DNA of 7,641 nucleotides from Escherichia coli (GTDB taxonomy: Bacteria; Pseudomonadota; Gammaproteobacteria; Enterobacterales; Enterobacteriaceae). The position numbers and the translations under genes were made by a program. The notes under the pieces are model-generated. The model saw nothing but the letters and a program-made list of their open reading frames with translations, did no database searches and was not told the DNA's origin. Location: NCBI RefSeq assembly GCF_003334255.1, contig NZ_QOWU01000095.1; one strand, 5' to 3'. Positions 1,483-4,119 of the stretch are shown here, piece by piece (within the stretch, counting starts at the first letter, position 1; the number at the start of each line of letters is the position of its first letter).

Positions 1483-2553
1483 TTACCCCCTGAAGCCCGG
1501 CGGAATTTCGTTATCCGGTTCAGAAATATGATTCACACAACGCTGGTTGTTCGTGCCGCTTACCGGGAGCAGCCAGGGGTTTTCAAAATTCCGGTCCGGT
1601 CCAAAAAACGTCGTCGCTCGCTGAACAAATTCCGTTCCCGTTTTCCCGGTAGCCGCAAGGTATCTTGCGTAACGCCTCACGCCATCCAGCATGGCCTCTG
1701 GTGGCACCCCCTCGCGTAATCTGGCTTTCCAGGCACTGAAAGCGGATTTCTTCGGGTTTGCCCCGGCACGCAACGGGTATTCCCGCCAGACCTGTTCGAA
1801 CACATCAGGATAATCCACTCGTCCCACAGGCTGCCCGGTGTTTTCCGGGACTACCCGATCGGCTTCCCGCTGAATGGCGGAATCGGCTTCAGGCTGCTGA
1901 AGTTGGTGTGATTGCTCCTGCCTTGCGGTCATCACCTGCTGCACAGCGCCCGAATCGGCTTTCAGCGCATACGCTGAATCGGCTTCCGGTGTCGTGCCTG
2001 CGGGCTGGCCAGGAGTGACGGTCTGAACATCCCCTGCCTGGTTCGTGGCGTTTTTTACGCCATGGACCATAGTGTTTTGATCTTCTTGATCTGTATCTTT
2101 ATCTGTATCTTTATCTGTCGTGACTCGTCGTGACATGTGCGTGACATTTCGTGACTCGCCGTGACAATCGCCATTTTGTTCCCGCTTTCTTTCCCTCTCT
2201 CGCTGCGCCCTCTTGCGCTCTGCCGGAGATTTTGCGGTTTGCGAAATATTGCCGTTGTCCTCTTTCAGCACCTGGCGTTTTTCCCATCCAGTGATTAAAT
2301 CACCATCAAGTACCCGCCCCTGCATCGTCTGCAAAATTGAATCAATTACCTCTTCTGTCACGTCGAGCGCACTTGCCAAATCTTCTGTCGTGACATCAAT
2401 GTGACCTCGCGTGACATTTCGTGACGCGCTCACCAGGAGGTGGATATACACTGCCATCACTGTTGCAATTGGCTGCCCTGACACCCTGGCAATTGTTCGC
2501 CACTTAGGGTCATTTGGCATGTCATGCCATAATCTGAGCCAGGCGTTAGCCAT
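1483..2553 (-). CDS. phage replication initiation / replisome-organiser protein (O-like), 356 aa
   Basis: This is track ORF 1483..2559. I prefer the ATG at 2553 (MANAWLRLWHDMPNDPKWR...), with GAGG 5 nt upstream. It sits immediately after the cro/cII-analogue pair, as O does in lambda. The N-terminal domain is HTH-like, the linker is a low-complexity acidic/Gln stretch, and the C-terminal segment FEQVWREYPLRAGANPKKSAFSAWKARL resembles the conserved C-terminus of phage replication proteins. Iteron arrays lie inside the gene. Confidence 0.75.
   Translation of the reverse strand: MANAWLRLWHDMPNDPKWRTIARVSGQPIATVMAVYIHLLVSASRNVTRGHIDVTTEDLASALDVTEEVIDSILQTMQGRVLDGDLITGWEKRQVLKEDNGNISQTAKSPAERKRAQRERERKREQNGDCHGESRNVTHMSRRVTTDKDTDKDTDQEDQNTMVHGVKNATNQAGDVQTVTPGQPAGTTPEADSAYALKADSGAVQQVMTARQEQSHQLQQPEADSAIQREADRVVPENTGQPVGRVDYPDVFEQVWREYPLRAGANPKKSAFSAWKARLREGVPPEAMLDGVRRYARYLAATGKTGTEFVQRATTFFGPDRNFENPWLLPVSGTNNQRCVNHISEPDNEIPPGFRG
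2079..2124. repeat. AT-rich tandem repeat with two GATC sites (candidate DNA-unwinding element)
   Basis: The sequence is GATCTTCTT-GATCTGTATCTTT-ATCTGTATCTTT-ATCTGTCGTGAC, a 12-bp unit repeated about 3 times. Positions 2079-2118 are about 70% A+T, and GATC occurs at 2079 and 2088. GATCTGTATCTTT resembles the oriC 13-mer GATCTnTTnTTTT. The repeat abuts iteron cluster 1. Confidence 0.55.
2119..2165. repeat. iteron cluster 1: five CGTGAC repeats at 10-11 bp spacing (putative ori)
   Basis: CGTGAC starts at 2119, 2129, 2140, 2150 and 2160, so the spacings are 10, 11, 10 and 10 bp. The cluster lies inside the replication gene, as ori-lambda lies inside O. Confidence 0.65.
2357..2425. repeat. iteron cluster 2: (C/T)GTGAC x4 at 10-11 bp spacing plus one inverted copy
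   Basis: CGTGAC is at 2389, TGTGAC at 2400, and CGTGAC at 2410 and 2420. An inverted GTCACG is at 2357-2362. The 17-mer GCGTGACATTTCGTGAC is identical at 2139-2155 and 2409-2425. Confidence 0.6.
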
Positions 2554-2624
2554 ACTCACCTCTTCTGATACCGAATCTTTTTACTCACGAGTTGCCGGAA
2601 GCGATTCGATATGGCTATTGTCAG

Positions 2625-3050
2625 TCAATGTACTGCCACAGCATTTCCTGCCGGGCCACCACGGTTCATCTGATTGAAACCGGCGATTGCCACTGCGACA
2701 AAATCATCAGCGTCTCTCACCAGTCGCTCCCGCGTCTCCACCAGCTCCCGAAAATAAGCTGAACTGTGGCTGCGCATTCTGGCCACCAGCAAAGGTGGCA
2801 TTGCCTTTTCGATCGCTGGTAACAACGCCTGAATTTTTTCAACTGCATCAGGGGTGTCTTTCTCTACCCAGCGGAAAATTTTCTGGGTATTGCGAGCCAG
2901 GGCTTCCGGATGGCTGTCGTCATACAGTTCCGGGAACGTCATTCCCAGCTCGAAATACGCTTTGGTAATTTTCGCAGCCGGTACTTTTTCGCCGTCCGGA
3001 TGCGCCCAGGCATTCATCGCCATGCGGATGTGTTCATGCTTGATTTTCAT
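2625..3050 (-). CDS. ydaT: YdaT-family protein (functional CII analogue of CP-933P/Rac-type prophages), 141 aa
   Basis: This is track ORF 2625..3122. The true start is the ATG at 3050 (MKIKHEHIRMAMNAWAHPDGEKVPAAKITKAYFELGMTFPELYDD...), preceded by AAGGGGGG. I recognise the sequence as YdaT family. It lies directly after the Cro-like gene and overlaps it by 17 nt. Confidence 0.85.
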   Translation of the reverse strand: MKIKHEHIRMAMNAWAHPDGEKVPAAKITKAYFELGMTFPELYDDSHPEALARNTQKIFRWVEKDTPDAVEKIQALLPAIEKAMPPLLVARMRSHSSAYFRELVETRERLVRDADDFVAVAIAGFNQMNRGGPAGNAVAVH

Positions 3051-3276
3051 GAATCCCCCCTTGGTTAGAAGGCGGATTATGATCAGAACCGGGAATGACA
3101 ACCGTCGGTATGTGTAACTCATATTTGAGCGCCCCGGCAGTGACTGCCTGAATTAGCAACGCCCATTTCCACGGAACCTCTTCCCCCCACATGCTGACTG
3201 TGGTTTTTGACGTTCCTAGAGCTGCGGCTGTTTTAACAACTCCGCCAAAATAGCCTAATACTTCTGATTTTTTCAT
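3034..3276 (-). CDS. Cro-like HTH regulator of the DicC/YdaS family, 80 aa
   Basis: This is track ORF 3034..3324. I prefer the ATG at 3276 (MKKSEVLGYFGGVVKTAAALGTSKTTVSMWGEEVPWKWALLIQAVTAGALKYE...), with GGAG 6 nt upstream. The YFGG..K.A..LG......S.W pattern matches my recollection of DicC/YdaS. The gene is divergent from the repressor gene. Confidence 0.8.
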   Translation of the reverse strand: MKKSEVLGYFGGVVKTAAALGTSKTTVSMWGEEVPWKWALLIQAVTAGALKYELHIPTVVIPGSDHNPPSNQGGIHENQA

Positions 3277-3305
3277 GAGTCGCTCCATAAAACTGAACGT
3301 CAAAA

Positions 3306-3367
3306 GTTTAATAATCAAAACCAAAGAAAGTCAAGAAACAAAACCATCTGTGTTTTAAAATCAAAAC
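3306..3367. promoter_or_regulatory. tripartite operator (three 16-bp sites, 23-bp period) with divergent promoters
   Basis: O1 is 3306-3321 GTTTAATAATCAAAAC, O2 is 3329-3344 AGTCAAGAAACAAAAC, and O3 is 3352-3367 GTTTTAAAATCAAAAC. O1 and O3 match at 14/16 positions, and the arms GTTT(T)/(A)AAAC are inverted. CAAAAC ends at 3321, 3344 and 3367. The leftward candidate promoter is TTGACT (3334-3329) with TATTAA (3313-3308). The rightward candidate -10 is TAAAAT (3356-3361). Confidence 0.6.
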
Positions 3368-4006
3368 ATGAGCAAGCAAACTATATCTGAACGCATAACC
3401 CAACGTATGCATGCGCTAAACCTGAAAGGCAAAGACCTTGTCAATGGCACTGGCGCATCAAAAGGCTCCGTAAGTCAATGGATGAACGGTGGAGGAGCGC
3501 CGTCCTCGCGTTACATAAGTTCACTGGCAAAAATATTGAAAGTAAACGAAAATTGGCTTCTTAATGGAGGAGAGTTAAATACAGGTGATTCGCTTGATCT
3601 ATCTTTACCGCCGATAAAAACGGTTCCGCTACTATCACTTCAGCAGGCAGCAAGCTGGAGTGATTATATGAAAAATTCCTCAATAACCTCTTGTGTGCAG
3701 CTTGTCGGAGAAATCCCGGTCAATACCTTTGCAGTTGTTCTAGAGAGTGACAGTATGTCAACATCTGGTGGGGGAGTTTCCATCCCAAATGGTTCAACAG
3801 TTTTTGTTGATCCCGATCGAACCGTACAACCAGGAAATATTGTCCTTGCCTTACCCAAAGGGACCACAACACCTGTCATTCGTAAACTGGAGATAGAAGG
3901 GCCGGATATTCTTTTAGTCCCCACGAATCCTCGCTACCCTTCAATTATGCTGGATGATCTATCTTGCATATTGGGCGTATGCTTTAAAATTCAACAAGAT
4001 ATTTAA
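3368..4006 (+). CDS. CI/LexA-like prophage repressor: N-terminal XRE-type HTH + C-terminal S24 peptidase domain, 212 aa
   Basis: This is the track ORF. The HTH is ISERITQRMHALNLKGKDLVNGTGASKGSVSQWMNG. The C-terminal half aligns by eye with lambda CI: FAVVLESDSM is similar to FWLEVEGNSM (Ser129), and PVIRKL is similar to FTFKKL (Lys173). VFVDPD and PTNPRYPSI are similar to LVDPE and PLNPQYPMI. There is no SD before the ATG. Confidence 0.9.
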   Translation: MSKQTISERITQRMHALNLKGKDLVNGTGASKGSVSQWMNGGGAPSSRYISSLAKILKVNENWLLNGGELNTGDSLDLSLPPIKTVPLLSLQQAASWSDYMKNSSITSCVQLVGEIPVNTFAVVLESDSMSTSGGGVSIPNGSTVFVDPDRTVQPGNIVLALPKGTTTPVIRKLEIEGPDILLVPTNPRYPSIMLDDLSCILGVCFKIQQDI

Positions 4007-4073
4007 CCAACCTCATCTATTTGATTAACTGTATGCCATCGTGGTGATGGCTTAACAGCTGCCTGCTTAAAAT

Positions 4074-4119
4074 GTTTTGATAAAAAAACATTGACCTGGA
4101 AAGTTCGTTTTTCTAAACT
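4074..4119 (+). promoter_or_regulatory. promoter of the ydfABC-dicF-dicB operon (PL/dicBp analogue) with adjacent operator-like site
   Basis: TTGACC (4091-4096), a 17-bp spacer, then TAAACT (4114-4119). The 16-mer GTTTTGATAAAAAAAC (4074-4089) matches the minus-strand reading of O3 (GTTTTGATTTTAAAAC) at 13/16 positions and ends 1 bp before the -35. Confidence 0.6.

Follow-up and report, generated by a model that had tools for sequence, protein, structure and literature searches.

The 7,641-nt stretch of Escherichia coli DNA analysed here (the window) contains, by gene calls and Pfam matches, the immunity region of a lambdoid E. coli prophage (Table 1). The gene order is cI, cro, ydaT and replication, with a gene of the YdaT family lying directly after the cro-like gene and divergent from the repressor. 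The C-terminal tail of the cro-like protein (residues 54-80) is encoded across the candidate YdaT-box and the –10 hexamer, the latter falling within the cro coding sequence (codons Asp-His). Positions 2400-4100 are 100% identical in many E. coli chromosomes, and at least 80% of this segment is matched in 1035 of 5426 complete E. coli genomes, while the ydaT DNA of the window is matched in 3036 of the 5426. Two deposited phages, vB_EcoS-640R1 and vB_EcoS-813R8, show 100% identity over window positions 2900-4100. In a considerable proportion of E. coli prophages, a YdaT-type regulator takes the place of CII.

The YdaT protein of the window matches Pfam YdaT_toxin (E 7e-10), is 97% identical to PDB entry 3c4r (E 2e-90) and about 88% identical to 8bt1, the crystallised YdaT of CP-933P (E 1e-81). 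Its recognition-helix stretch, ALARNTQKIFRW, which includes Arg53 and Arg60, is the same as that of CP-933P YdaT. Rac YdaT is only 33% identical to it overall, yet the first 8 codons of the Rac and window ydaT genes are common almost base for base, a contrast which indicates a constraint at the DNA level.

Table 1. Features of the immunity region, with positions in the window
Feature	Position	Strand	Description
Replication gene	2559 to 1483	–	No Pfam match
CP-933P OL equivalent	2997..3022	+	CCGGATGCGCCCAGGCATTCATCGCC, inside ydaT; 1 mismatch to the published oligo (Table S5, PMC9986795)
ydaT, proposed activator (141 aa)	3050 to 2625	–	Pfam YdaT_toxin
cro-like gene (80 aa)	3276 to 3034	–	Pfam P22_Cro, residues 2-53
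Candidate YdaT-box	3040..3057	+	TTGATT-TTCATG-AATCCC; equivalent of CP-933P OM and the Rac YdaT-box
Promoter-proximal half-site	3052..3057	+	AATCCC; C at 3056; position 3057 free in the family
–35 position	3055..3060	+	CCCCCC; antisense of the ydaT Shine-Dalgarno run GGGGGG
–10 hexamer	3078..3083	+	TATGAT; 20 nt past the box, 17 nt past the –35 position
Predicted transcription start	3088..3091	+	5-8 nt past the –10; deduced from sigma-70 geometry
Distal promoter-like site	3233..3262	+	TTAACA-18-AATACT, inside cro; 9/12; positional analogue of Rac PracR4
cI-like repressor	3368-4006	+	HTH_3 and Peptidase_S24 (LexA-like); proposed target of the promoter

The candidate YdaT-box and its promoter elements

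The initial annotation proposed that an inverted repeat at the ydaT start forms, together with an activator-type promoter, a PRE-like arrangement pointing toward the repressor gene. The elements that it described are present as described. TTGATT occupies 3040-3045 and AATCCC 3052-3057, separated by the spacer TTCATG (3046-3051), and the site straddles the ydaT start codon at 3050, CAT at 3048-3050 being the antisense of ATG. The CP-933P consensus against which the site had been scored, TTGATT-N6-AATCAA, is indeed the published one (PMC9986795), and the score of 10/12 stands. On the + strand, TATGAT is a 5/6 match as a –10 hexamer and the CCCCCC at the –35 position is non-consensus, with 1/6 identity to TTGACA.

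The 10/12 match is not significant by itself, since sites of this quality are expected by chance in 7.6 kb: the 18-mer TTGATT-N6-AATCAA with at most two mismatches matches the window once, where 0.77 matches are expected, and one or more matches turned up in 106 of 200 shuffled windows. The significance of the site comes instead from its position, orthologous to two footprinted sites, from its being the sole core match and from the conserved spacing to the –10. Across the YdaT loci described below, the consensus is YTGATT-N6-AATCAN, in which the outermost positions are free and the core TGATT/AATCA is otherwise almost invariant, so that the effective core is TGATT-N6-AATCA. The window box matches this core at 9/10 positions and is the only site in the window with at most one mismatch to it. 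Judged against the family core, the box has one meaningful mismatch, the C at 3056, and not two. For a box followed by TAnnnT at 20 or 21 nt, the expectation is about 0.015 per window (0.77 x 0.02).

We saw no analogue of PI or PaQ in the window and found there no further YdaT box with at most one mismatch, whether of the PI or PaQ kind or intergenic, as in Rac. AATCAA motifs in the intergenic region were considered as YdaT boxes and rejected, as they are isolated half-sites inside repressor operators.

Read as its reverse complement, the Rac box, ATGATTCATGAAAATCAA (PMC11879457), agrees with the window box at 16 of 18 positions, and an ATG lies in the spacer of the window box, of the CP-933P OM site (TCATGCTTGATTTTCATGAATCAACTCCAT) and of the Rac box alike. 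The G:C pair that the published model puts in contact with Arg60 is retained in both half-sites of the window. The genomic part of the mBio primer F-PRE is an exact match to window positions 3022-3041. An equivalent of CP-933P OR is absent from the window because the cro module differs. From these orthologues we infer that YdaT binds the variant box of the window.

With the centre of the box at 3048.5 and the end of the –10 at 3083, transcription is predicted to start at about 3090, some 7 nt past the hexamer, which would place the box centre at –41.5 (–42.5 in those family members with 21-nt spacing). The window thus carries the feature by which this analysis defines the family promoter: a –10 located 20-21 bp past the box, on the strand directed to the repressor, with a non-consensus –35. 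Just two TAnnnT hexamers occur between 3022 and 3300. From the predicted start to the cI ATG (3368) there are 278 nt, and no significant terminator was found between them. A hairpin that the transcript would pass, at 3187-3203, was considered as a terminator and rejected, being no better than shuffles (z –0.59). The cI ATG has no Shine-Dalgarno sequence ahead of it, and translation from a long leader may therefore be inefficient.

Conservation at YdaT loci and the variant half-site

The comparison covers 298 YdaT loci, drawn from IMG/VR, phage records and genomes with E. coli, Klebsiella and Stenotrophomonas homologues as seeds. These comprise 96 unique junctions, which fall into 19 clusters less than 60% identical over the 45 nt past the box. 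The diversity derives from the IMG/VR scans; scanning genomes across the species with an alignment of two YdaT sequences yielded only 9 loci. The CII-like proteins of mEp237 and HK639 (L173 and L174) were left out as a different subfamily: they match YdaT only partially (residues 4-85, about 37% identity), carry an N-terminal extension and show no visible TGATT-N6-AATCA box at the start of their genes. They probably represent a sister subfamily with another operator.

A TAnnnT hexamer starts 20 nt past the box in 11 of the 19 clusters and 21 nt past it in 7, and in the one left over CAAAAT stands at offset 20. The 53 remaining offsets of the 0-54 profile together hold 11 matches, and the background is 11 matches in 1102 positions (offsets 0-59 minus 20-21), or about 0.01 per position. 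The binomial probability of the matches at offsets 20-21 is 4e-30 for 19 clusters and 5e-20 if only 13 lineages are independent. The –35 position at 17-nt spacing scores 0-3/6 in all 19 clusters. A TGn extension of the –10 stands immediately before the hexamer in 9/19 clusters (P 8e-7), most of them with a hexamer of only 3/6; by this pattern, TGn beside weak hexamers is compensation among the promoters of the family. Other E. coli types have TGC-TATCCT, TGT-TAGCCT or TGT-TAACGT as their –10, Klebsiella types TAGCAT, TACGAT or TATCAT, and the Stenotrophomonas type TGT-TAAGCT. Phages of the Stenotrophomonas type have the box between genes, with 38-52 bp separating it from the start codon, and both its core and the spacing are unchanged; neither box nor spacing is therefore a mere consequence of the MKIK codons. 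The Stenotrophomonas clusters, which are mutually related, have a –10 that overlaps the stop codon of cro. The TATGAT singled out by the initial annotation therefore lies at what is the –10 position of the family, offset 20-21 in 18 of 19 types.

What distinguishes the window is its promoter-proximal half-site. C at 3056 occurs only in the window type (23/298 loci), A being found in the 18 other junction types (275/298 loci). About 2000 other E. coli genomes, along with Tritos, Evi and other phages, are homologous to the window only as far as 3055/3056 and carry different cro-like modules past that point, which locates a module joint inside the proximal half-site. The C at 3056 may reduce the affinity of YdaT; in CP-933P, the incomplete repeats OL and OR are bound only weakly (PMC9986795). 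The –10 hexamer that accompanies the variant box, at 5/6, ranks among the best of the family. If this reading is true, the combination of a weakened proximal half-site (AATCC) with a strong –10 could set another YdaT threshold for lysogeny. As a test of co-adaptation of the –10, we sought the cro module of the window next to a non-YdaT cII; in E. coli its neighbour was ydaT every time and no such combination was found.

The C-run at 3055-3060 varies in length, with 6 or 7 C in otherwise identical loci (L002 vs L006). With 7 C, the spacing from box to –10 is 21 rather than 20, both spacings being used elsewhere in the family, and the cro-like protein ends in ...GGDS*, not in ...GGIHENQA*, with stop and start codons overlapping as ATGA.

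A proposed YdaT-dependent promoter and its alternatives

Two orthologues of this element have been studied, and YdaT-dependent PRE-like promoters have thus already been published, for CP-933P (PMC8630535) and for Rac (PMC11879457). In CP-933P, PRE933P lies between ydaS and ydaT, and the report describes a PRE933P-gfp fusion that is silent without YdaT and active with it (PMC8630535). The YdaT footprint there is a 25-bp zone around TTGATT-N6-AATCAA (OM), with the weak sites OL and OR flanking it, and OM was placed downstream of PRE933P, covering an alternative transcription start (PMC9986795). The CP-933P reporter fragment is 120 bp long (18 bp, the box and 84 bp), and its only TAnnnT is TACAAT, 21 bp past the box, from which it follows that the YdaT-responsive promoter of CP-933P must be box-proximal. 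PRE933P and OM share with the window an identical distal half-site and flank, the OL equivalent, a box that straddles the ydaT ATG, a –10 at 20/21 bp past the box and a promoter aimed at the repressor operon. They differ in the proximal half and the –10 (AATCAA and TACAAT at 21 nt in CP-933P, AATCCC and TATGAT at 20 nt in the window), in the neighbour of the box (ydaS in CP-933P, a P22_Cro-type cro with a 17-nt overlap in the window) and in the repressor, which is PaaR2 with a toxin-antitoxin pair in CP-933P and a LexA-like S24 protein in the window.

In Rac, according to the published text, the footprinted YdaT-box has the ydaT ATG within its spacer, and leftward transcription and racR are activated 29-fold by YdaT, an effect that is lost when the box is mutated, the YdaT dependence of leftward transcription having been followed with lacZ and mKate reporters; the activation was assigned to PracR4, about 190 bp from the box (PMC11879457). 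The same text describes binding of YdaT to the racR-ydaS intergenic region as well (PMC11879457), whereas the intergenic region of the window has no box-like site. Rac resembles the window in its box, in the ATG within the spacer and in having TATGAT exactly 20 nt past the box. The published function of the Rac site is activation of the repressor gene racR, and the window promoter is proposed to target the cI repressor. The authors of the Rac study place the activated promoter 190 bp away; the comparative data obtained here favour the proximal –10. Two observations on the K-12 copy of Rac (L001) may be added: the TATGAT, at 1357-1352, had not been reported, and the PracR4 hexamers, TTGACG and TACGCT (1188-1156), are 21 nt apart, outside the usual sigma-70 spacer range.

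A unifying interpretation of these data is that 3040-3083 is the PRE equivalent of the prophage, an activator-dependent sigma-70 promoter on the + strand, a reading to which we give a probability of roughly 0.7. YdaT would be made from the rightward PR transcript, after cro, and a YdaT tetramer would bind the inverted repeat over its own start codon. Centred about 41.5 bp upstream of the predicted start, the site would have its proximal half in place of the missing –35, and YdaT would recruit RNA polymerase to TATGAT as a class II activator. Transcription from there, antisense to cro, would cross that gene and the operator region and enter the LexA-like cI, raising repressor synthesis and opposing cro expression during the establishment of lysogeny. 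What we infer, then, is where transcription starts, that YdaT makes a class II contact and that cI is affected.

Class II activators are positioned at about –41.5, as CRP and FNR are, and as lambda cI is on OR2 at PRM. Promoters of this class resemble the window in having a dimer-type palindromic site about 41.5 bp from the (here predicted) start, overlapping a poor –35, together with a good or extended –10. Lambda CII, for its part, recognises direct repeats, TTGC-N6-TTGC, that flank the –35. Such repeats were not found at 3040-3083, and the protein of the window is of the YdaT family, a POU-like HTH tetramer unrelated to lambda CII that recognises an inverted repeat. Lambda PRE has its regulatory logic and location in common with the arrangement proposed for the window: PR supplies the activator once cro has been transcribed, the promoter at the cro/cII junction is silent and has a poor –35, and its transcript reads antisense to cro into the repressor gene. 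The element would work like lambda PRE and is not a member of the CII/PRE family. The PRE-like logic of the initial annotation is thus supported as far as function is concerned, by the published orthologues (PMC8630535, PMC11879457) and the conserved –10; the geometry, with an inverted repeat near –41.5, is unlike that of lambda CII.

A different possibility is that YdaT bound at 3040-3057 activates the distal promoter-like site, which lies 176 bp from the box within the 5' portion of cro, and that TATGAT is not a start. This would agree with the attribution in Rac of the 29-fold, YdaT-box-dependent activation to PracR4 (PMC11879457), and a 9/12 site at a similar distance did come out of the promoter scan of the window. 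The text of that study, however, describes no PracR4 mutant under YdaT induction (PMC11879457), the Rac reporter contains the box-proximal TATGAT too, and the 21-nt separation of the published PracR4 hexamers in K-12 also speaks against it. The YdaT-responsive fragment of CP-933P, moreover, stops 84 bp past the box. Across the family, distal sigma-70-like sites are missing in 12/19 types and have no common position, compared with a proximal –10 in 18/19, and we consider activation at a distance unlikely.

It is rather improbable, in our view, that the site has decayed to a remnant at a mosaic joint, recombination at 3055/3056 having replaced the end of its proximal half, so that YdaT no longer binds it usefully and the TATGAT in the cro tail is silent and there by coincidence. 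The chance-level score of the 10/12 match, the end of homology to about 2000 other genomes at 3055 and the restriction of C at 3056 to the window type speak for such a remnant. However, the cro module supplies a 5/6 –10 at the exact family spacing, and the same hexamer and spacing recur in Rac, whose YdaS is unrelated. The type is also common and stable, as its presence in 1035/5426 complete E. coli genomes and in deposited phages attests, and only one core position is changed, the modelled G:C contact pair being kept. Rac YdaT is described as binding fairly degenerate sites, with micromolar Kd (PMC11879457). Very improbable, finally, is a role of the box mainly as a negative autoregulatory operator, at which YdaT, sitting on its own ribosome-binding site and ATG, would block readthrough transcription or, by occupying the DNA, limit ydaT expression, leftward transcription being secondary. 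The box does overlie the Shine-Dalgarno sequence and start codon of ydaT, and the CP-933P authors term YdaT a repressor (PMC9986795), but ydaT expression in Rac is described as changing little whether or not the box can be bound by YdaT (PMC11879457), and a pure operator needs no leftward –10 fixed 20-21 bp away in 18/19 types.

Activation of the proximal TATGAT is the reading that we extend to the family. We judge it fairly probable that all YdaT-family phages, Rac and CP-933P included, use a box-proximal class II promoter (box centre at –41.5/–42.5) with TAnnnT or TGnTAnnnT 20-21 bp past the box and no usable –35, neither distant from the box nor upstream of OM, and that the window type is a variant with a weakened half-site and a strong –10. 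A box-proximal start, as predicted from these alignments, would be at odds with the placements in PMC11879457 and PMC9986795. What would be mildly new here is a box-proximal –10 across the family, rather than a promoter 190 bp away, and a variant proximal half-site in a very common prophage type. The location of the YdaT-dependent start decides how the lysis-lysogeny switch is modelled and how published reporter data are read, and the comparison of proximal –10 hexamers bears on the disagreement among three papers over where the promoter lies. As regards the window, the outcome is mainly one of annotation: the element is real and of a kind already described.

Other features of the immunity region and the replication gene

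The intergenic region between cI and cro (3306-3367) contains three operator-like copies of 14-16 nt with 23-nt spacing, GTTTAATAATCAAAAC, AAGAAACAAAACCA and GTTTTAAAATCAAAAC, which look like a tripartite OR. A PR-like promoter, TTGACT-18-TAAACT, is found on the minus strand at 3334-3305. On the cI side there is a TAAAAT (3356-3361) whose end is 7 nt upstream of the A of the cI start codon, and its closeness to the ATG, together with the absence of a Shine-Dalgarno sequence, suggests that the cI maintenance transcript is probably leaderless. A leaderless maintenance transcript has been published for lambda cI and for CP-933P paaR2.

The replication gene contains CGTGAC repeats with a spacing of about 10-11 bp at 2118-2166 and 2400-2430, as well as a 12-nt tandem repeat in three copies (TCTTKATCTGTA, 2084-2119). 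By their arrangement, these repeats look like origin iterons within an O-like gene.
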